A stretch of 64,000 bases of DNA from an uncultured Candidatus Peribacteria bacterium (GCA_964458485.1 CAYWJA010000004.1:2231-66230); one strand, 5' to 3'; positions 9,570 through 48,832 are shown, counted from the first letter of the stretch. The notes: generated by a model from the letters alone, not told the origin. A program made the numbers and translations.

Positions 9570-9662
9570 GGAGAGATACCCAAGTGGCTGAAGGGGCGGC
9601 TTTGCTAAAGCTGTAGGGGGATTTTTATCCCCGCGAGGGTTCGAATCCCTCTCTCTCCGCCA
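9570..9662 (+). tRNA. tRNA-Ser (anticodon GCT, reads AGY), CCA encoded
   Basis: Hand-folded. Acceptor ggagaga/tctctcc, D arm ccc-aagtggctgaa-ggg, anticodon stem cggct/agctg with loop ttGCTaa. There is a long variable arm (tagggggatttttatccccgc) and T arm gaggg-ttcgaat-ccctc, then discriminator g and CCA. Confidence 0.9.
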
Positions 9663-12531: not shown

Positions 12532-12757
12532 GCACTTGAGACTAAATAATATTGACAATCACAATTTTTACATGATATACAGATATTCTCAATGTGAATT
12601 ATGGAAATTAAATGAACTATTTTGTATTTTAATGAATATTTTGTATGAAACATCGCAGTATTGAACGCAAACGTCTCCGATCATCCGGACACGATTATTC
12701 ATCGGACGGATTACACGCCATCACAATCACTGAAACATGTGAAGGAATTTTTAGGTA

Positions 12758-12820
12758 AATGCGAAATGCCAAATGATCCCGATGAAATCGGGACGAAATC
12801 AGAAATGCGAAATGCGAAAT
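12758..12820. repeat. Word array / hairpin / word array composite between ribD and comM
   Basis: aaatgcgaaatgccaaatga, then the hairpin tcccgatgaaatcggga (12777-12793), then cgaaatcagaaatgcgaaatgcgaaat. Positions 12794-12815 are identical to 59387-59408. Confidence 0.85.
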
Positions 12821-12848
12821 AAATATTTTATCCCATAAAATTTATAAC

Positions 12849-14366
12849 ATGCCATCAAAATTACAGAGCATAGAACTACACGGCCTAGACGGGTACCTGG
12901 TTGAAATAGAGGTTGATCGCCGTGCAAGTAACCAAAAATTTATTATCGTCGGCCTGCCAGATAAAGCTGTGCAGGAGGCCTGTGAACGCGTAACCAGTGC
13001 TGTAAAAAATTCTGATTTTGATTTCCCACGAGGAAAGGTAATTGTCAGCTTAGCCCCCGCGGATCTGAGGAAGGCAGGACCACGCTACGATCTACCAATC
13101 GCATTAGGCATCGTTGCACTAATGAAACAGGTATCTGTTAAAACATTTAAAAATACAGCTATTATCGGCGAACTTGCTTTAGATGGAACAGTGAGGCCTA
13201 TAAACGGAATTTTATCGAGTGTCGAATTTGCAAAAAAACAAAATTTTGAAAAAATTATTCTCCCAAAAGAAAATGCAAAAGAAGCAGCTCTGATCCCAGA
13301 TATTCAAATAATACCTGTGGCAAATTTACGGGAAGCTGTAATGCATTTAAAGAAAAAATTATTCGCATTGCCGATCGATCCGCCTAAATTCAAATCTAGT
13401 AGCAATAATGCAATTGATATGTCTATGGTCAAAGGACAGTCACAAGCAAAACGAGCACTTGAGATTGCAGCATCCGGCGGACATAATATTTTATTATATG
13501 GAGCGCCGGGGTCGGGAAAAACCTTAATGGCAAAAGCTTTAGCTGGAATATTGCCATCGATGTGCATTGAAGAAATGCTTGAAGTTTCAAAAATTTATTC
13601 CATTGCGGGCTTATTGCCCAAAAAACAGCCATTAATTACAACCAGACCCTTCCGCCCAATCCATCATACTGCATCAGCCGTGAGTATCGTGGGCGGTGGA
13701 AACATACCAGGGCCTGGAGAAATATCATTAGCACACAGGGGTGTTCTTTTTATGGATGAAATTGCCGAATTTCCAAGAAGTGTACTTGAGGTATTAAGGC
13801 AGCCAATGGAAGATCGAATTGTCACTGTATCCAGAGCGAAGGGAACATGCACATATCCTTGTCAATTTACATTAGTAGCGGCCATGAACCCATGCCCGTG
13901 CGGATATAAAAATGTAGAGAACATACATGAGGAGTGTAACTGTTCTGCCCTAGAAATACAGAGGTACGAAAAAAAATTGTCAGGCCCGTTGCTAGATCGA
14001 ATTGATATGTTTATTAATGTAAATCCTGTAGATTTTTCAAAACTTACAGACCAAAAAAAATCTGAAACGTCCAAAACAATATGCAGGCGTATCGAAAAAG
14101 CCAATAAACGACAGCGGAAAAGATATAAAAAAACCAACATCAAATGTAATGCAGAAATGGAAAATAAAGATATTGAAAAATATTGCCCACTGGATGATCA
14201 ATCAAAAAACCTGCTCGCCACAGCAATGAGCCAAATGAATTTATCAGCAAGGGGGTATTTTAGGATCATAAAGCTCGCCCGCACAATTGCGGACCTCGAT
14301 CGCTCACCTGCGATTACGCCAGCACATATTGCGGAAGCTCTGCAATATAGGAAGAAATTTTTTTAA
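12849..14366 (+). CDS. comM: YifB/ComM family Mg-chelatase-like AAA ATPase
   Basis: 505 aa with a Lon-like N-terminal domain, Walker A (GAPGSGKT) and the typical ComM C-terminal region. Confidence 0.9.
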   Translation: MPSKLQSIELHGLDGYLVEIEVDRRASNQKFIIVGLPDKAVQEACERVTSAVKNSDFDFPRGKVIVSLAPADLRKAGPRYDLPIALGIVALMKQVSVKTFKNTAIIGELALDGTVRPINGILSSVEFAKKQNFEKIILPKENAKEAALIPDIQIIPVANLREAVMHLKKKLFALPIDPPKFKSSSNNAIDMSMVKGQSQAKRALEIAASGGHNILLYGAPGSGKTLMAKALAGILPSMCIEEMLEVSKIYSIAGLLPKKQPLITTRPFRPIHHTASAVSIVGGGNIPGPGEISLAHRGVLFMDEIAEFPRSVLEVLRQPMEDRIVTVSRAKGTCTYPCQFTLVAAMNPCPCGYKNVENIHEECNCSALEIQRYEKKLSGPLLDRIDMFINVNPVDFSKLTDQKKSETSKTICRRIEKANKRQRKRYKKTNIKCNAEMENKDIEKYCPLDDQSKNLLATAMSQMNLSARGYFRIIKLARTIADLDRSPAITPAHIAEALQYRKKFF

Positions 14367-34787: not shown

Positions 34788-36725
34788 ATGCCAAAACAAA
34801 AAAAAGTAACAAAATCCAAAGTTCTTAACAGAGAAACCACAGTCGTTTTAATGGAAGAGAAAAAATGGTACAAGCCATCTACAAAAGTCATTAAAAAAGC
34901 TATAATCAAAGACTGGAAAAAAGTCCACGCTGCAGCCAAACGTAACCCGATCAAATATTGGGAAGAGGCAGCGCGTGAACTGGAATGGTATAGGGAATGG
35001 AAAATTCCTTTTAAAGAAGCTAAAAAGAATTTTTTCCAATGGTTCTTAGGCGCCAAATGCAACATCGTCCACAATTGTCTGGATCGCCATATGGGAACTC
35101 CAACAGAAAAAAGGACAGCAATTATTTGGGAAAATGACAAAGGCGACCATTGTAAAATGACCTACAAAGAGCTCAATAAATCTGTTTGCAAAATGGCCAA
35201 TGGTCTTAAATCTCTCGGCGTTAGAAAGGGCGACGTAGTCGCGATTTATATTCAAAATACTCCGGAAGCAGCCATTTCTATGTTGGCTTGTGCAAAAATT
35301 GGCGCAGTCCACTCCGTCGTTTATGCCGGCTTTTCTGCACATGCCTTAAAAGATCGAATTGATGATGGGAAAGCAAAGGTTTTAATAACATCCGATGTCG
35401 GCTACCGTGCTGGCAAAACAATCGACATGTATTCTTTGTGTGCAGATGCTGTTAAAGGTTCAAAAACCATCAAAAAAATGATTGTAGTTAAGCGTAAGCC
35501 ATCCAGTAAAAAGAAAAATAAACGCCGGGATGTCTGGTTTGGTGAATTAATGCGCAAGCAGTCTGCAAAATGTGAAACAGAAGTAATGAGTTCGGAAGAT
35601 CCTCTGTTTATTTTGTATACATCCGGCACTACATCAAAACCAAAAGGCGTGGTTCATGTGCATGGCGGTTATATGGTTGGTGTTAATCGGACATTCAGAT
35701 GGGTAATGGACGTAAAAGATGATGATATTTATTGGTGCACTGCGGATCCCGGATGGATAACTGGTCATAGTTATATAGTCTACGCACCTTTGATGTCCGG
35801 CATTACTACTTTAATGTTTGAAGGTGCACCAAATTACCCAAAGCCGGATAAATTATGGCGTGTTGTTAAAAAACACAAAGTCACAATTTTTTATACTGCC
35901 CCAACCCTCATACGCGCACTTATGGGCTATGGTGACAAGTGGGTTAAAAAACACAATATGCCATCACTCCGATTACTCGGATCAGTCGGCGAACCTATTA
36001 ATCCGGAGGCGTGGCGGTGGTATTGGAAAGTTGTAGGAAGAAAAAAATGCCCCATCATGGATACCTGGTGGCAAACTGAGACTGGCATGTTTATAATTAC
36101 CCCCCTTCCATCTATGCCACTCAAGGCTGGCTCTGCCACATTACCATTTCCGGGGATAATCGCTGATGTCGTTGACAAAAAGGGCAAATCCGTCAAAGTT
36201 GGCGAAGGCGGTTATTTGATTATTAAAAACCAATGGCCATCTATGCTGCGTACAGTATTTAAAAACCCAAAACGTTACATCGAAACATACTGGAAGGACG
36301 TTCCTGGTTCATATTTTACAGGGGATCTAGCCCGTAAAGACAAAGACGGATATTTTTGGGTACAAGGAAGGTGCGATGATGTCCTTTCCATTGCCGGCCA
36401 TCGTATTAGTAATGCTGAAATTGAGAGTGCAATTGTATCCCATAAAGCAGCCGCCGAAGCCGCAGTTATTGGCAAACCACATCCTGTAAAAGGTGAATCT
36501 GCAAAGGCTTTTGTAATACTAAAAAGGGGCATAAAACCATCTGATAAATTAATTGTGGAACTCAAAAAACAAATCCGCAAAGAGCTCGGTCCAATTGCTG
36601 TTACGGATGAAATTGAATTCGTTAAAAAATTACCAAAAACCCGTAGCGGTAAAATCATGAGGCGAGTTCTAAAAGCAAAAGAGCTTGGCAAGGAGTTGGG
36701 TGACACTAGCGCGTTGGCGGATTAA
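34788..36725 (+). CDS. acs: Acetyl-CoA synthetase (AMP-forming)
   Basis: AMP-binding motif (ILYTSGTTSKPKG), full-length Acs-like layout and the C-terminal PKTRSGKIMRR. The ATG at 34788 is preferred because the track start at 34674 reads through the palindrome. Confidence 0.95.
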   Translation: MPKQKKVTKSKVLNRETTVVLMEEKKWYKPSTKVIKKAIIKDWKKVHAAAKRNPIKYWEEAARELEWYREWKIPFKEAKKNFFQWFLGAKCNIVHNCLDRHMGTPTEKRTAIIWENDKGDHCKMTYKELNKSVCKMANGLKSLGVRKGDVVAIYIQNTPEAAISMLACAKIGAVHSVVYAGFSAHALKDRIDDGKAKVLITSDVGYRAGKTIDMYSLCADAVKGSKTIKKMIVVKRKPSSKKKNKRRDVWFGELMRKQSAKCETEVMSSEDPLFILYTSGTTSKPKGVVHVHGGYMVGVNRTFRWVMDVKDDDIYWCTADPGWITGHSYIVYAPLMSGITTLMFEGAPNYPKPDKLWRVVKKHKVTIFYTAPTLIRALMGYGDKWVKKHNMPSLRLLGSVGEPINPEAWRWYWKVVGRKKCPIMDTWWQTETGMFIITPLPSMPLKAGSATLPFPGIIADVVDKKGKSVKVGEGGYLIIKNQWPSMLRTVFKNPKRYIETYWKDVPGSYFTGDLARKDKDGYFWVQGRCDDVLSIAGHRISNAEIESAIVSHKAAAEAAVIGKPHPVKGESAKAFVILKRGIKPSDKLIVELKKQIRKELGPIAVTDEIEFVKKLPKTRSGKIMRRVLKAKELGKELGDTSALAD

Positions 36726-38009: not shown

Positions 38010-38068
38010 AATTTTATTTGTTAAAGGAGGTTAATATAAATGCTCATTTATTTTTAGTCAATTAAAAA

Positions 38069-38130
38069 GCTAATTCGTAATTCGTCTCTCGCCCGCCCGG
38101 ATGACCGGGTCGGACGGGTAATTCGTAATT
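38069..38130. repeat. Word array / GC hairpin / word array composite downstream of lysS
   Basis: gctaattcgtaattcgt, then ctctcgcccgcccggatgaccgggtcggacggg, then taattcgtaatt. The direct repeat taattcgtaatt flanks the GC insert. Confidence 0.85.
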
Positions 38131-38135
38131 AAAAA

Positions 38136-40286
38136 TTATAGCCCAATTTCGTCAGATATTTCTTTCATTGCTTCAAGAGCTATTTCAAAGAATTCACCAA
38201 GCTCCAATCCACATTTCTCAACTTCGCGGATAACATCACGATTTACCTTGGCGGCAAAAGACTTGTCTTTAAATTTCTTTTTAATAGATTTGACCTTAGC
38301 ACCTTCAAGTTTTTTGTCCGGGCGCATTAGGGCATATGCGAATATTAACCCCGTAACAGTTTCGCCTGCAGCAAGTGCATGTTGAAATTTGGTAGTACGT
38401 TCTTTGTCTTTATATTCAGGAATTTCATCCATTCCATATCCGTGTGATGCGATAACCTCAATGAGTTCATCCGAAACACCTGCATTTTTTAAAATTTCGA
38501 CAGATTTTACACAATGATTTTCAACATCTTCACATGTTTCCTCCCAATCAATGTCATGCAAAAGTCCAGCAATACCCCAAACTTCCTCATCTTCACCAAG
38601 TCGTTTTGCAAGAGCGCGCATTACAACTTCTGATTCGCGGCAGTGATTACGATTCATTGGATCTTTGATGTGTTTATCAAACAATTCTTTTGCCTGTTCA
38701 TAAGTTATGCCGGCGGTTATGTTTTCGTTGTTGTTTTCGGGACGCAGGTCTGCGCCCCCTACAGGATGGTCCGATACCTTCCCACCCTTCGGTCTCATCA
38801 ACGGAAACATAACAACGTCACGCAAATTATCCTGTTGGGTTAAAAGAGTTACAAGGCGGTCGATACCCATCCCCCATCCACTCATTGGTGGCATACCATG
38901 TTCCATAGCTTCCAAATATTCTTCATTCATACTCATTGCTTCTTCATCCCCGCCAGCCTTTGCCTTTGCCTGCCCCTCCAGCCTTTTCCTTTGGTCTGCC
39001 GGGTCAACAAGTTCGCTATATGCATTTATAACTTCCCATGTGTTTACTAAGAGCTGGAATGTATCGCATACTTTGTCACTTTCATCATTTCTTCTCGCAA
39101 GCGGTTTTGTGTCTGCTGGATGATGGATTACAAAACACGGCTGAATCAATTTTGGTCTACTTACCTTTTTGTATAAATGATCAACCAAATTTCCATAACC
39201 CATATTTTCAGCATCTTCTATTTCTATTTCTTTTTCTTTTATAGCTTTTAAAAGATCTTTTTCGTTGTCATATTCCAGAATATCGATTCCGCAGTCTTCT
39301 TTTATCATTTCCCGATAATCCCTGCGTGGCCATGGAGTTTTAAAATCAATTTCAGCCTCTTTGCCTTCCTGATCTTTAATCATAACTTTCGTTGTGCCCA
39401 TTACCTCTTTCATCAAATATTCAAACATTTCTTCGGTAAACTTCATATTATCTTCAAAGTTCCAATATGCAGCATAGTGCTCGATCATTGTAAACTCTTG
39501 TAAGTGGCTTGGGTCCATGCCTTCGTTACGGAAACATCTTGCAACTTCAAAAGTTTTTTCAAAACCACCCACAACCGCTGTTTTTTGCCACAACTCCCCT
39601 GCTGCTATGCGTAAATAAACATCAATATCCAATGCATTATGATGTGTCGAGAAAGGTTTAGCCGCAGCACCGGATGAAATATTTTCAAGAACAGGCGTTT
39701 CAATTTCAGTAAACCCCTTACTCCAATAAAATTCACGTAATTTACGAACGACTTTTGATCGGAATTCAAATCGCGCACGCGCTTCTTTGCTCATCACCAA
39801 ATCAAGATGCCTTTGGCGATATTTTGTTTCTTGGTCTTGAAGCCCGTGCCATTTTTCTGGCAATGGACGGATCGCTTTACCCAAAAAAACCAAATCACTA
39901 ACCAGCAAAGTTGTTTCACCATGTTTGGTTTTAAAAAGCTCACCAGTTACACCAATAAAATCCCCAATGTCCAAAAGTTTCATGAGTTTTTCCTGTTTTT
40001 CATCCAAAACACCTTTCATCAGGCAGATTTGGATTTTACCTTTATCATCTTGAAGATGTGCGAAATTAAGTTTCCCAAAATCACGAAAAGACATCATTCG
40101 TCCACATAACGTGACATCATTTTTATTGTCTTTTTGAATTTCTTCAACGTCGCGTAATTTTTCTTGGCCAAGCTTCAATGCCTCATCAGAATAATGCGTA
40201 CGTTCAAACCGTGCTGGGTAGGGGTTGATACCAAGTGCACGAATTTTTTCGATCTTATCAAATCTTTCTTTTGATATTCTATCCAT
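38136..40286 (-). CDS. lysS: Lysyl-tRNA synthetase (class II) fused to a C-terminal HD-domain hydrolase
   Basis: Residues 1 to ~500 are a complete LysRS ending ...RDVVMFPLMRP. A ~20-aa linker encoded by a palindromic repeat follows, then ~195 aa with HD-superfamily motifs (LLHDIDWE, ASHGYG). Confidence 0.9.
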   Translation of the reverse strand: MDRISKERFDKIEKIRALGINPYPARFERTHYSDEALKLGQEKLRDVEEIQKDNKNDVTLCGRMMSFRDFGKLNFAHLQDDKGKIQICLMKGVLDEKQEKLMKLLDIGDFIGVTGELFKTKHGETTLLVSDLVFLGKAIRPLPEKWHGLQDQETKYRQRHLDLVMSKEARARFEFRSKVVRKLREFYWSKGFTEIETPVLENISSGAAAKPFSTHHNALDIDVYLRIAAGELWQKTAVVGGFEKTFEVARCFRNEGMDPSHLQEFTMIEHYAAYWNFEDNMKFTEEMFEYLMKEVMGTTKVMIKDQEGKEAEIDFKTPWPRRDYREMIKEDCGIDILEYDNEKDLLKAIKEKEIEIEDAENMGYGNLVDHLYKKVSRPKLIQPCFVIHHPADTKPLARRNDESDKVCDTFQLLVNTWEVINAYSELVDPADQRKRLEGQAKAKAGGDEEAMSMNEEYLEAMEHGMPPMSGWGMGIDRLVTLLTQQDNLRDVVMFPLMRPKGGKVSDHPVGGADLRPENNNENITAGITYEQAKELFDKHIKDPMNRNHCRESEVVMRALAKRLGEDEEVWGIAGLLHDIDWEETCEDVENHCVKSVEILKNAGVSDELIEVIASHGYGMDEIPEYKDKERTTKFQHALAAGETVTGLIFAYALMRPDKKLEGAKVKSIKKKFKDKSFAAKVNRDVIREVEKCGLELGEFFEIALEAMKEISDEIGL
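38739..38762. repeat. 28-nt palindrome family, copy 3, inside the lysS-HD linker
   Basis: The reverse complement of gggacgcaggtctgcgccccctac matches copy 1 (34722-34749) with one mismatch over 24 nt. It encodes VGGADLRP. Confidence 0.85.
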
Positions 40287-41589: not shown

Positions 41590-42816
41590 TCAGTCCGTTG
41601 CCAAAATTTTCTCTAAATCATAATCCTCCGGATGTGGCACAATTTTGCCTATTTCTTTATAATTTTCCGGCTTTACATAATGCAAATTGGAAAAAGCTAA
41701 TTTATAATCCTGAGCATCCACATCTACAAGTCTTGTTTTGATTTTGCCGGTTTTTCTATCTTCAATGTCTCTTAGATATAATGGCGAAATTTCTCCATTA
41801 GCTTTTGCTATCACAATACAGCCTGTGCGTCCTTCATCATACAGCTTTTTAACCCCCATACCCAGCATGGTGCAGTAATTCATATCAAAGGCAATAGGGC
41901 TGCAAGCACGTGTTTCATAGCCTAGTTCAACAGGGCGGCTTTTAACCTTTATTCCTATCTCTTTTAATTTTTTCTGTAATAGTACGTTAAAGATATGCGA
42001 TTTAGACACTGTTCCAAGCTCGGGATGGCCATGTTCATCGAATGTAAGATTAATTCCGCAATTAGCAATTTCTGAATCACTCATAAAATGGAAGACTCCT
42101 TCACTTATAATTATGGCGCCATGATCTAGCCCATACATCTTTCGTTTTAAAATCGAAGAAATCATCATATGAATGATTTTGTCGAAAGTGATTTTTTTGC
42201 CCTTAAACATTTCTGGAATAATTACCATTGGGTAATGACATGCTGTGCCTATACCAAAGGCAAGATGTCCTGCCTCTCTGCCCATAGCTGCAACCACAAA
42301 CCAATTTCCACTACTTCTGGCATCCTCATAAATAGTTTGTGCTATACGAGACCCCTCATTTTTTGCTGTTTCATAACCGAATGTAGGCAACCTATCCGGA
42401 AGTGGTAAATCATTATCAATTGTTTTTGGAACATGAATATTTTGAATATCTACTTTTTGCGTTTTTAAATATTTTGTCAGCCGATTGGCCGTTGAAGCAG
42501 TATCGTCACCACCTATTGTAACTAAAAGTTTTACATTATTTTTAGTAAAAAATTCCGTACTGAATTCAGAATCTTTAGGTTTATAACGGCTCATAGTAAG
42601 AACACTGCCTCCTCTATCATAAATATAATCTGCAAGCTCAAAATCAAATTCAACGATTTTTGGTTTACCGGAAAAAATTGTCTTGGTGCCTTCGTTTAGC
42701 CCAATAACCCGCCATCCTTCATTTAAAAAAGATTTAGCAAGAGAGCTGATTACGGAATTGATCCCTGCGGCTGGTCCACCGCTACATAAAATTGCGACTG
42801 TGTTTTTTTCTTTCAT
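41590..42816 (-). CDS. pfp: Phosphofructokinase, pyrophosphate-dependent type
   Basis: PFK-A family. GGDDT (Asp where ATP-PFKs have Gly) and PKTIDND (Lys where ATP-PFKs have Gly) are the classical PPi-specificity residues. Confidence 0.85.
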   Translation of the reverse strand: MKEKNTVAILCSGGPAAGINSVISSLAKSFLNEGWRVIGLNEGTKTIFSGKPKIVEFDFELADYIYDRGGSVLTMSRYKPKDSEFSTEFFTKNNVKLLVTIGGDDTASTANRLTKYLKTQKVDIQNIHVPKTIDNDLPLPDRLPTFGYETAKNEGSRIAQTIYEDARSSGNWFVVAAMGREAGHLAFGIGTACHYPMVIIPEMFKGKKITFDKIIHMMISSILKRKMYGLDHGAIIISEGVFHFMSDSEIANCGINLTFDEHGHPELGTVSKSHIFNVLLQKKLKEIGIKVKSRPVELGYETRACSPIAFDMNYCTMLGMGVKKLYDEGRTGCIVIAKANGEISPLYLRDIEDRKTGKIKTRLVDVDAQDYKLAFSNLHYVKPENYKEIGKIVPHPEDYDLEKILATD

Positions 42817-42822
42817 GATTTC

Positions 42823-42893
42823 GGGTTGTGGCTAGGGTTGTGGATAGGGTTGTGGCTACCATTCTAGCCACTATTCTAGCCACCACTCGACCA
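42823..42893. repeat. Opposed word arrays gggttgtggcta x3 / attctagccac x2
   Basis: The 12-mers at 42823, 42835 and 42847 are followed by ccattctagccac tattctagccac cactcgaccact. gtggctag and ctagccac are complementary. Confidence 0.85.
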
Positions 42894-43904
42894 CTATTCG
42901 TTAATTGATTTAGATAAAAGCTCCATCATATCCACAAGCCTACAAGCATACCCCCACTCATTATCGTACCAGGTAATTAGCTTAACATAGCGGTCATCCA
43001 AAACCTTAGTTAATTGTGTGTCTATAATGCTGGAATGGGGATTGGTCTTGAAGTCAATTGATACCAATGGATCATCGCAGTAGTCAATAATAGGTTCATA
43101 GTATTCTTCTCTGCATTTTTTCCTAAAAAAATCATTAAGCTCATCTTCGCTTACACTATTTTCCAGATGAAGTACAATATCGCAAACTGAACTAGTCGCT
43201 ATTGGTACTCTGTAAGCCATACCATCTAACTTTCCCTTTAGTGCAGGAATTATTTTTGCAGTAGCCTTAATAGCACCAGTAGTTGTTGGGATTACAGACT
43301 GAACAGCACTGCGGCATCGACGCAAATCTCTGCCAGAATTATCTAGAAGATTCTGAGAATGTGTAAATGAATGAATGGAAGAAACAGAGGCATTTAAAAT
43401 ACCCCATTTTTCATGCACTAGTTTAATAGGCGGAGCAATACAGTTGGTCGTACAACTTGCATTAGAAATTACTTTATATTCTGATTTTAAATCTTTTTCA
43501 TTTACCCCAATAACGAAAGTTGGTGTGTCATCTTTCATTGGTGCAGAAACGAGAACTTTTTTTACACCACCTTCCAGATGTCGGCTGGCTATGTCGTAAG
43601 TTTTTGCTTTACCGGTACACTCCAAGACAATATCCACATCATAATCGCTCCATGGAATTTCACGTGCGTCTTTGATTGCAAAACAATGTACATTTTTACC
43701 ATCCACTAGAATCCCTTCACCATTTTTCTTAACTTCATTTTTAATATTGCCATGCAGAGAGTCATATTTTAAAAGATGTGCCCGCATTTTTCTGTCTTCT
43801 GACCTAGCATTAATTGCAACCACTTCCATATCTGGACGGTTTAGGAGTATGCGATGGACAATACGTCCGATTCGGCCGTAGCCGTTTAGGCCTACTTTGA
43901 TCAT
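42894..43904 (-). CDS. gap: Glyceraldehyde-3-phosphate dehydrogenase, type I (copy 2)
   Basis: 336 aa with NGYGRIGR and SNASCTTNCIAP. It is clearly diverged from the copy at 6959-7963. Confidence 0.9.
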   Translation of the reverse strand: MIKVGLNGYGRIGRIVHRILLNRPDMEVVAINARSEDRKMRAHLLKYDSLHGNIKNEVKKNGEGILVDGKNVHCFAIKDAREIPWSDYDVDIVLECTGKAKTYDIASRHLEGGVKKVLVSAPMKDDTPTFVIGVNEKDLKSEYKVISNASCTTNCIAPPIKLVHEKWGILNASVSSIHSFTHSQNLLDNSGRDLRRCRSAVQSVIPTTTGAIKATAKIIPALKGKLDGMAYRVPIATSSVCDIVLHLENSVSEDELNDFFRKKCREEYYEPIIDYCDDPLVSIDFKTNPHSSIIDTQLTKVLDDRYVKLITWYDNEWGYACRLVDMMELLSKSINE

Positions 43905-48682: not shown

Positions 48683-48709
48683 TTTTTATTGTTTAATTAT
48701 GTATATTGG

Positions 48710-48737
48710 GTAGGGGACGCAGATCTGCGTCCCCTAC
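48710..48737. repeat. 28-nt palindrome family, copy 2 (upstream of the epimerase gene)
   Basis: gtaggggacgcagatctgcgtcccctac is a perfect 28-nt palindrome. It begins 27 nt beyond the epimerase ATG (minus strand). Confidence 0.9.
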
Positions 48738-48832
48738 ATTATTACATAACAACAACATGAACCAAAACAATAAAAAACTTTGACATTCAAAATTATTCTT
48801 GTATTCTAGCGCGGCCCTTTAATTAAAAATAT

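Follow-up and report, generated by a model that had tools for sequence, protein, structure and literature searches.

Aminoacyl-tRNA synthetases gain additional domains, through which otherwise concealed stages of quality control in translation and of signalling come to light, and we describe here a gene in which a class II lysyl-tRNA synthetase (LysRS) runs in frame into an HD-domain phosphohydrolase module. The gene lies at 38136-40286, on the minus strand, of a 64,000-nucleotide (nt) stretch of DNA from an uncultured Candidatus Peribacteria bacterium (GCA_964458485.1, CAYWJA010000004.1:2231-66230), the whole of which is referred to below as the window. LysRS is a classical major producer of diadenosine tetraphosphate (Ap4A), and YqeK is an HD-domain hydrolase of Ap4A (see also PMC10148737, PMC11857287). 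YqeK, which splits Ap4A symmetrically into 2 ADP, resembles the domain described here in being a small (about 190 amino acids, aa), all-helical HD protein with the ligands H...HD...H...H...D that is linked to an adenylyl-transferring enzyme; a partner of this type would make sense for LysRS as a maker of Ap4A. YqeK, however, is often fused or adjacent to NadD and is found in Gram-positive bacteria, whereas the LysRS-linked HD family partners lysS, not nadD, and has its own Lys-rich signature, SxKKKFKxKxFAA. GlyRS beta and the bacterial CCA-adding enzyme similarly carry an HD module on an enzyme acting at the tRNA acceptor end. The HD domain of GlyRS beta has been modelled near the tRNA's acceptor arm and has lost the catalytic His-Asp doublet (PMC8464048), whereas the LysRS-linked HD family keeps all of its ligands. 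LysX, which joins LysRS to an MprF-type lysyl-phosphatidylglycerol (LPG) synthase, offers a second catalytic module that uses or handles a LysRS product, and a LysRS-LPG_synthase_C protein (P0207) is found among the relatives of the window protein; the module considered here differs in being a soluble C-terminal HD phosphohydrolase and one of a set of add-ons specific to the Candidate Phyla Radiation (CPR).

Precedents also exist for two features of the locus itself. One is the non-orthologous displacement of one LysRS class by the other, the use of class I and class II LysRS being patchy among related organisms (Terada et al. 2002, as cited in PMC8464048). The other concerns a 28-nt palindrome, one copy of which encodes part of the linker between the two modules. 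A terminal GTAG tag on a palindrome of 20-40 nt is the signature of one super-family of repetitive extragenic palindromic (REP) sequences, that linked to REP-associated tyrosine transposases (RAYT), or Y1 transposases (PMC3733652, PMC2817692), and in-frame insertion into genes, at linkers and loops, is tolerated for the Rickettsia palindromic elements (RPEs) (PMC10969869).

The gene and the parts of its product are as follows.

38136..40286, minus strand: LysRS-HD fusion gene, one frame of 716 aa, with the stop codon TAA at 38136-38138
38787..40286, minus strand: class II LysRS module, aa 1-500 (NF001756, TIGR00499)
39891..40115, minus strand: N-terminal OB-fold anticodon-binding domain, aa 58-132 (PF01336, tRNA_anti-codon, 55 bits)
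38796..39836, minus strand: class II catalytic core, aa 151-497 (PF00152, tRNA-synt_2, 268 bits, model positions 1-307 of 308)
38721..38786, minus strand: interdomain linker, aa 501-522 (GGKVSDHPVGGADLRPENNNEN), 22 aa, predicted to be disordered (AlphaFold2)
38718..38720, minus strand: ATA (Ile523), at the position where close free-standing HD genes start with ATG (DNA and protein alignments)
38139..38720, minus strand: HDIG-type HD phosphohydrolase domain, aa 523-716, 194 aa (PF01966, TIGR00277, AlphaFold2)

The initial annotation of the window had read this frame as LysRS fused to an HD domain, with the LysRS part ending where free-standing LysRS proteins end, and both points were borne out. 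The LysRS models are matched end to end at aa 4-500 (NF001756, 588.2 bits against a cut-off of 468; TIGR00499, 528.4 bits against a cut-off of 427.6), and the free-standing LysRS relatives stop at query residues about 498-506. Past this point the frame stays open through KGGKVSDHPVGGADLRPENNNEN into the HD domain, which contains the motifs HDIDWE and SHGYG and scores above the cut-offs of PF01966 (HD; 31.5 bits in the full-length protein, 34.1 bits with the domain on its own, cut-off 22) and TIGR00277 (HDIG; 45.5 bits for the domain scanned alone, cut-off 27.6). AlphaFold2 modelled the whole protein (predicted TM score, pTM, of 0.50) as two confident domains joined by a segment, residues 494-521, at which the local confidence measure pLDDT falls below 50. 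Because this segment of low pLDDT joins two confident domains, the linker is predicted to be a disordered, flexible tether. The tryptic peptide of the fusion protein that spans the linker is VSDHPVGGADLRPENNNENITAGITYEQAK.

The ORF (open reading frame) is one genuine gene for a LysRS-HD fusion protein. At the junction, where the initial annotation had allowed for a missed stop codon or a frameshift, the same 716-aa ORF was found on identical DNA in contigs (L006, L007, L008) from three other samples and assemblies (JGI 3300009374, ERZ23499057 and ERZ23499079). In DNA alignments, a single transition separates the ATG of close free-standing HD genes from the ATA of the window, and after Met497 of LysRS the frame has no ATG, GTG or TTG before the conserved HD core is reached. 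The HD domain has no usable start of its own, and would therefore be made only within the fusion, or at best from Met497. The domain is 81-84% identical to its free-standing homologues and keeps all of the residues that are invariant in the family, indicating that it is under selection and hence translated.

The initial annotation had also proposed a database search for the LysRS-HD architecture, and this search placed the window protein in a large company. When 1.84 billion protein cluster representatives were scanned and the best 150 clusters (50% identity) were classed, at least 30 of these 150 proved to be fusions of LysRS and HD. Twenty-one of the proteins, of 671-735 aa, match LysRS and HD in a single stretch, and in 9 longer proteins the two are parted by another module, the interposed architectures being LysRS-NUDIX-HD, LysRS-HAD-HD, LysRS-B3_4-HD, LysRS-tRNA_bind-B3_4-HD and LysRS-DUF2000-HD; the HD domain is always the most C-terminal module. 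A further protein search listed dozens more partial LysRS-HD fusions. We also examined 80 loci with an HD relative in species-representative genomes, at 23 of which LysRS lies within 5 kb, almost always on the same strand and directly upstream of HD. Eleven of the 80 are in-frame fusions, from Patescibacteria, Gottesman-, Buchanan-, Pacei- and Parcubacteria, Peribacteria and two Lachnospiraceae. The remaining LysRS-linked loci, many of them from DPANN archaea, contain separate genes, with the HD gene mostly abutting lysS, at spacings that run from a gap of about 60 nt to an overlap of 4 nt. The recurrent neighbours of HD in the 80 loci are LysRS, GreA and SerRS, and no other cluster occurs in more than 3 loci. 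By this comparison of public sequences, the LysRS-HD fusion is shown to be an old, widespread architecture of CPR/Patescibacteria-like organisms, and other CPR bacteria as well as DPANN archaea are shown to encode this HD family right behind lysS in a gene of its own, often with overlap.

By its own terms the initial annotation would have been refuted had the fusion been common and already annotated, with its HD domain assigned to a family of unrelated established role. The fusion did prove common. Its fused nature is missing from the annotation, however, NCBI naming these proteins only "lysine--tRNA ligase", and the HD family is one without an established role. No description of the LysRS-HD architecture was found in the literature. 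As far as we searched, what is new is thus an architecture that is common in public data yet unannotated, and undescribed in the literature found, while its kind, a synthetase with an appended hydrolase module, is known.

HD is one of several modules found at this end of the synthetase, CPR-like class II LysRS being a hub for C-terminal add-ons (P0126, P0130, P0135, P0137, P0149-P0184, P0168, P0180, P0213). The add-ons seen are DUF2000, B3_4, tRNA_bind, B3_4+DUF2000, NUDIX+HD, HAD+HD, B3_4+HD, tRNA_bind+B3_4+HD and DUF2000+HD, where B3_4 is the fold of the PheRS-beta editing domain. Some related LysRS proteins carry DUF2000, B3_4, tRNA_bind or LPG synthase alone. We found no literature description of the C-terminal add-ons of CPR LysRS.

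The identity of the HD domain was approached through its conserved residues, profile models and predicted structure. An alignment of 18 fusions and 35 free-standing members revealed that H548, H577-D578, D580, H591 and H615 are invariant and that an acidic residue is conserved at 641/642. The family also has a specific Lys-rich motif, SIKKKFKDKSFAAKVNRD (aa 667-684), with the consensus SxKKKFKxKxFAAxVxR. The AlphaFold2 model of the domain is an all-helical HD fold with a pLDDT of 95. The ligand set H...HD...H...H...D/E is that of the binuclear HD phosphodiesterases (reviewed in PMC8177086). Since the full set of metal ligands is kept, the HD domain is very probably a catalytically active, metal-dependent phosphohydrolase.

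The initial annotation had considered a YqeK-like classification for this domain, which profile searches did not support. All 35 of the family members tested match both PF01966 and TIGR00277, and these generic HD and HDIG models were the only ones passed above threshold. Affinities below threshold were seen to RNase Y, to PRK12703 (a fusion of Trm56 and HD, matched in its HD half), to TIGR00295 and also, in a minority of the members, to PRK07152 (NadD-YqeK), which was matched by 11 of the 35 with a best E-value of 5e-4, far below its cut-off of 315. YqeK has its own NCBIfam model, which we take to be TIGR00488; no YqeK model appeared in the match lists of the 35 members at E-values up to 1. 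Sequence searches of the PDB, made with the HD domain alone and with a profile of 35 sequences, gave nothing significant, the best matches being caspase-4 (a chance match, E about 0.09) and the YqeK structures 8jja and 2ogi (E 0.35-0.9). Foldseek searches with the HD model returned only generic HD-fold matches, with E of 5e-3 or above and TM scores of at most 0.58, which single out no one enzyme family. The best of these, itself weak, was the HD domain of Escherichia coli GlyRS beta (7eiv; E 5e-3, TM score normalised to the query 0.56-0.58, 14% identity), and PgpH and HD-GYP score as well as GlyRS beta. The YqeK-type structures 8jk9, 8jja, 2ogi and 3ccg rank below GlyRS beta and PgpH, with TM scores of 0.47-0.49 that reflect generic HD-fold similarity. 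Membership of the YqeK type is not supported: a match to the model is missing, the PDB E-values are not significant, and the TM scores are no better than those of other HD proteins. None of the listed neighbour-cluster representatives from the 80 loci resembles NadD, as judged by eye with no profile test made. By profile comparison the domain belongs to a distinct, uncharacterised HD family and not to YqeK, and its predicted fold brings it no nearer to YqeK than to other HD proteins.

Two associations of the same HD family with ribosomal proteins were noted. An archaeal protein of 419 aa (P0316) consists of ribosomal protein S3 (KH_2 and S3_C domains) fused to this HD family, and at two Woesearchaeota loci (L026:1602-2958 and L033:4237-5573) HD directly follows genes resembling those for ribosomal proteins, such as an S19e-like ORF, identified by eye only. 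Both add to the ties of the family with translation.

The history of the fusion can be followed because the locus is syntenic among relatives of the Peribacteria bacterium. Its anchors in the window are the following.

41590..43904, minus strand: PFK and GAPDH genes, upstream syntenic anchors, 75-83% aa identity to the loci of relatives
34788..36725, plus strand: acetyl-CoA synthetase gene, downstream syntenic anchor, 76-81% aa identity, in the same relative position and orientation

FBA-GAPDH-PFK lie on one side of the locus and acetyl-CoA synthetase and an fn3 protein on the other, with the flanking proteins 75-83% identical among relatives. Within this frame four states were found. The first is the class II LysRS-HD fusion, present in the window and in L089, whose protein P0121 is 73% identical to that of the window and was found on ten contigs. 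In the second (L152) a frameshift or deletion breaks the fusion near the N-terminus of HD, and a TAG stop interrupts the HD frame (L152:7040-7710). In the third (L151) a class II LysRS ends in an 18-residue stub of the linker, without HD (L151:7440-7560). In the fourth (L001, L005, L003/L004, L009) a class I LysRS (L001:2417-4000, L003:3773-5356, L005:4407-5990, L009:2773-4353), which scores 362 bits with TIGR00467 against a cut-off of 148, is accompanied by a separate HD gene of 193-194 aa, located 10 nt downstream or one inserted ORF away. The lineages of all four states are about equidistant from the window, and no class I LysRS was found in the 64-kb window. Farther afield, the fusion is present in P0122 (62% identical; L091, whose short contig allows synteny to be checked for the acetyl-CoA synthetase neighbour only) and P0124 (45%), among many other CPR. 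Class I LysRS, identified by TIGR00467 above its cut-off, adjoins HD in L019 (Woesearchaeota, with overlapping stop and start codons) and L052 (Treponema) as well.

The most parsimonious account of these states is that the fusion is ancestral to the clade of the window, that in one lineage the class II module gave way to a class I LysRS, where the HD part would have survived separately and gained an ATG where the window has ATA, and that the HD gene has been lost or is decaying in two other lineages (L151, L152). Related organisms using one LysRS class or the other is the pattern of the known non-orthologous displacement, but here the swap is visible in situ, at one syntenic locus with flanking genes about 80% identical, and the HD partner gene is kept beside whichever class is present. 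Displacement between class I and class II LysRS is thus exemplified cleanly, in nature, by this locus. The many independent fusion clusters, the abutting and overlapping gene pairs, and the retention of HD after the class swap together support the view that the pairing of LysRS and HD is functionally meaningful. This part of the functional suggestion in the initial annotation thus stands; the other part, that the domain might be of the YqeK type, is not supported by the profile, PDB and Foldseek results given above.

We favour, with moderate confidence, an overall reading in which the window carries a bifunctional LysRS-HD gene, the product of an old fusion with a REP-type palindrome later placed in its existing linker, and in which the HD domain acts on a LysRS-linked phosphoester; this level of confidence blends near-certainty on the anatomy and evolution of the gene with low certainty on the substrate. 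In many lineages the HD domain is tethered to LysRS or translationally coupled to it, and it stays beside LysRS even when the class of the synthetase changes. Its substrate would be something particular to what LysRS does, and lysine, ATP/Lys-AMP and tRNA(Lys) are all that the two classes have in common. HD would act with LysRS, and its most likely substrate would be an adenylate-derived by-product cleared at its source, either a dinucleoside polyphosphate of the Ap4A/Ap3A type or released aminoacyl-AMP. Hydrolysis of such a by-product, Ap4A-type or aminoacyl-AMP, is our leading guess, though a tentative one, and the LysRS-NUDIX-HD and LysRS-HAD-HD architectures fit its nucleotide theme. It is further favoured by the standing of LysRS as a classical source of Ap4A and by the precedent of an HD enzyme that hydrolyses Ap4A.

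Several observations weigh against this reading. HD is dispensable, or encoded elsewhere, in some relatives, as the loci of L151 and L152 imply. Outside CPR and DPANN, most members of the HD family are not beside lysS, and clustering of the neighbours there gave no conserved context beyond GreA, LysRS and SerRS. Ap4A is a poorer fit for the pairing of HD with class I LysRS, an enzyme that depends on tRNA for forming Lys-AMP and is not known as a source of Ap4A; a fusion of class I LysRS and HD, to which we give little weight, was seen as one partial protein (P0005) on a single 1.6-kb contig. The HD family does not match the Ap4A hydrolase YqeK by profile, nor more closely than other HD proteins by fold, and the weak best Foldseek match is to the tRNA-contacting HD domain of GlyRS beta. 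Other associations of the HD family point to tRNA or the ribosome rather than to free nucleotides: the B3_4 and tRNA_bind modules, the S3-HD fusion, the ribosomal protein neighbours in Woesearchaeota, and the affinity to Trm56-HD and RNase Y, the RNase Y model being matched by 35 of 35 members and PRK12703 by 34 (best E 7.9e-9).

The associations with tRNA and the ribosome form part of the case for the strongest competing explanation, which we consider possible but less likely, that HD acts on tRNA(Lys) or another RNA. It might do so as a 2',3'-cyclic phosphodiesterase or 3'-phosphatase healing tRNA 3' ends, like the HD domain of the CCA-adding enzyme, as an RNase Y-like nuclease, or as a module binding the acceptor arm in the manner of GlyRS beta, whose HD domain is modelled near that arm. 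The LysRS-tRNA_bind-B3_4-HD, LysRS-B3_4-HD and LysRS-DUF2000-HD architectures, the ribosomal protein associations in P0316 and in DPANN, and the invariant Lys-rich motif of the family would all suit it, as would the persistence of the pairing with two structurally unrelated LysRS classes that have lysine, tRNA(Lys) and Lys-AMP in common. General repair of tRNA ends, however, gives no obvious reason for LysRS alone to be chosen among 20 synthetases. The structural matches are all weak (TM at most 0.58), with PgpH and HD-GYP scoring equally, and GlyRS beta lacks the His-Asp doublet (PMC8464048) that the LysRS-linked family retains with all other ligands. The NUDIX and HAD co-fusions point instead to small-molecule nucleotides.

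A broader proposal spans both outcomes: the HD family may be a dedicated, hitherto unrecognised LysRS partner enzyme of CPR bacteria and DPANN archaea, coupled physically or genetically to both LysRS classes, that either destroys a by-product where it arises (an Ap4A-type alarmone or released lysyl/aminoacyl-adenylate) or repairs or processes tRNA(Lys). We put this forward tentatively. If it is true, the fusion would be the first case of such a phosphohydrolase built into an aminoacyl-tRNA synthetase, and would show how minimal CPR and DPANN organisms handle a LysRS by-product or tRNA damage. The genomic context for a LysRS-specific HD function is unusually strong: independent fusion clusters number in the dozens, abutting or overlapping gene pairs are found across two domains of life, and HD was retained after the class swap.

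The junction between the two modules contains one of three copies of the palindrome in the window. These copies were found by pattern search and had been missed by a general repeat scan.

38739..38762, minus strand: in-frame copy, 24 of 28 nt (GTAGGGGGCGCAGACCTGCGTCCC), forming codons 509-516 (VGGADLRP)
34722..34749, no strand assigned: full 28-nt copy (GTAGGGGGCGCAGATCTGCGTCCCCTAC) in the spacer between divergent genes, 38 nt upstream of the ATG (34788) of acetyl-CoA synthetase
48710..48737, no strand assigned: full 28-nt copy in a spacer between divergent genes, 27 nt upstream of the ATG of the epimerase (48682, minus strand)

The position of the linker copy and the spacing of the other two, 27-38 nt upstream of start codons, agree with the initial annotation. 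Both full copies have the sequence GTAGGGGRCGCAGATCTGCGTCCCCTAC. Three sites for the palindrome core in the window compare with 0.00 expected from shuffled sequences. As RNA, the full copies form stable hairpins (34722 copy, -23.1 kcal/mol, z -6.3; 48710 copy, -23.7 kcal/mol, z -7.0), and the linker copy (38739-38762) gives -16.3 kcal/mol with a z of -2.1. The two intergenic copies have in common about 90 nt of flanking similarity, in the same orientation to the downstream start (34680-34775 and 48690-48790, on opposite strands); this could be a mobile unit of larger size or a promoter/5'-untranslated-region module that was duplicated. One end is missing from the linker copy, which has none of this flank similarity. 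The flank pattern of the intergenic copies reads TTTTGGTTCAT..GTTGTT.TGTAATAAT-palindrome-CCAATATA.A.AA.

A metagenome scan recovered the palindrome core in 57 stretches, about 40 of which carry the full GTAG...CTAC unit. The element is a perfect, GC-rich palindrome of 28 nt, GTAGGGGRCGCAGATCTGCGYCCCCTAC, with GTAG at its 5' end and CTAC at its 3' end. The stretches with the full unit are from low-GC contigs of many projects and have unrelated flanks, some with extra outer complementary bases. Two of the three reading frames of the palindrome are free of stops, encoding V-G-[GD]-A-D-L-R-P and R-G-R-R-S-A-[SP]-P. In-frame copies were found in HisRS, between the catalytic and anticodon-binding domains, in RecJ, N-terminal to the DHH domain, within a SpoU methylase and at the C-terminal end of a class III aminotransferase, and copies also lie inside three Y1_Tnp (IS200-like) ORFs (L101, L118, L142); the in-gene positions are L114:5270, L129:752, L134:3160, L125:2471, L101:518, L118:389 and L142:1445. 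A homologous ORF in L146, itself without a Pfam match, has the palindrome at the 5' end of its stop-to-stop frame. An origin as a sequencing adapter was ruled out by the variable flanks, the syntenic contexts, the occurrence in assemblies from many projects and the existence of sequence variants.

From this comparison we infer that the palindrome is a GTAG-tagged, REP-type, putatively mobile or selfish element. It has features of that group, namely a 28-nt palindrome with GTAG/CTAC ends, multiple copies and unrelated flanks; some copies elsewhere lie in or beside Y1_Tnp genes, in line with such an assignment, and the window itself contains only a weak fragment of such a gene. It differs from REPs in being also coding, in the linker and in HisRS, RecJ, SpoU and the aminotransferase, and so not purely extragenic. 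Tolerance of in-frame insertion is shared with RPEs. Unlike RPEs and REPs, the palindrome is found in low-GC CPR-like contigs; it is also much shorter than RPEs. The locus also shows a REP-type selfish palindrome surviving inside protein-coding linkers.

Two side observations concern the full copy at 34722 and the transposase. A mechanically called acetyl-CoA synthetase ORF (683 aa, start at 34674) over-extends through the palindrome, giving the same VGGADLRP peptide (34674-34787); homologues of 638-639 aa and one gene call of 645 aa indicate that the true start is the ATG at 34788. On the plus strand at 12654-12878 there is weak tblastn similarity (E 0.002-0.016) to the N-terminal 25-70 residues of palindrome-bearing Y1_Tnp-like proteins, in the intergenic gap upstream of a 505-aa ORF (12849-14366) that is ComM/Mg-chelatase-like by eye only. 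The fragment could be what is left of a RAYT gene; an intact one was not found in the window.

The palindrome is absent from the linkers, and from all loci, of the fused relatives, whose linkers are of similar length and unrelated sequence. The fused state without the palindrome is represented by P0121, P0122, L152 and the linker stub of L151. Because these relatives share the fusion without it, the palindrome is most probably not the origin of the fusion, and comparison suggests that the fusion is older than the insertion. A REP-type palindrome would have entered, in frame, an existing coding linker that was disordered and could tolerate it, and would have been trimmed there to 8 codons.

The initial annotation had preferred a different origin, in which separate lysS and HD genes with a REP-bearing spacer between them lost the lysS stop and the HD start, so that the spacer became the linker. 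REPs are normally extragenic and the other two copies in the window are intergenic; the HD domain of the window is nearer to free-standing HD proteins (81-84%) than to the fused HD of P0121 (67%); its ATA differs by one transition from the ATG of the free-standing genes; and abutting lysS-HD gene pairs are known in other lineages. We nonetheless consider this origin improbable. The palindrome-free fused relatives (L089/P0121, L152, L091/P0122 and the stub of L151) are as close to the window as are the class I lineages, and a spacer origin therefore needs fission followed by re-fusion. The nearest free-standing HD genes adjoin class I, not class II, LysRS. Direct insertion into coding DNA is tolerated, as the copies in HisRS, RecJ, SpoU and Y1_Tnp genes demonstrate, and with only 24 nt (8 codons) left, the linker is no longer than those of the relatives.

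Still less probable is a function for the palindrome at the junction, either as an mRNA hairpin that sets the ratio of LysRS to LysRS-HD, by slowing ribosomes or blocking 3' exonucleases, or as an operator in the DNA that it would have in common with the promoters of acetyl-CoA synthetase and the epimerase. The similar 90-nt flanks, common orientation and 27-38 nt spacing of the intergenic copies in divergent promoter regions would be in keeping with such a role, and the linker copy still folds. But the linker copy is without one end and the flank similarity, the z of its hairpin is just -2.1, the fused relatives do without the palindrome, and the element is scattered across many contexts in other organisms, like selfish DNA. 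Promoter-like matches in the junction region are at chance level, and the one terminator-like match there, on the opposite strand, compares with 2.0 expected.

Finally, the explanation that lysS and HD are two real genes joined through an assembly or sequencing error, the missed stop or frameshift having a parallel in the frameshift or deletion of L152 at the equivalent junction, is effectively refuted by the identity of the junction DNA in contigs from three further samples and assemblers, by the retention of the fusion in dozens of clusters, and by the lack of a start codon for a separate HD gene.

No tRNA(Lys) gene was found near the locus, the sole tRNA gene in the window being tRNA-Ser at 9570-9662. 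One further feature lies downstream of the fusion gene.

38089..38118 (region 38062-38135), minus strand: GC-rich hairpin CCCGTCCGACCCGG-TCAT-CCGGGCGGGCG, 18-50 nt past the stop codon, with direct repeats AATTACGAATTA on either side and then CUUUUU

The window has no second copy of the hairpin, and the repeats that flank it are unusual. With a folding energy of -23.5 kcal/mol (z -2.6), it is probably a transcription terminator.

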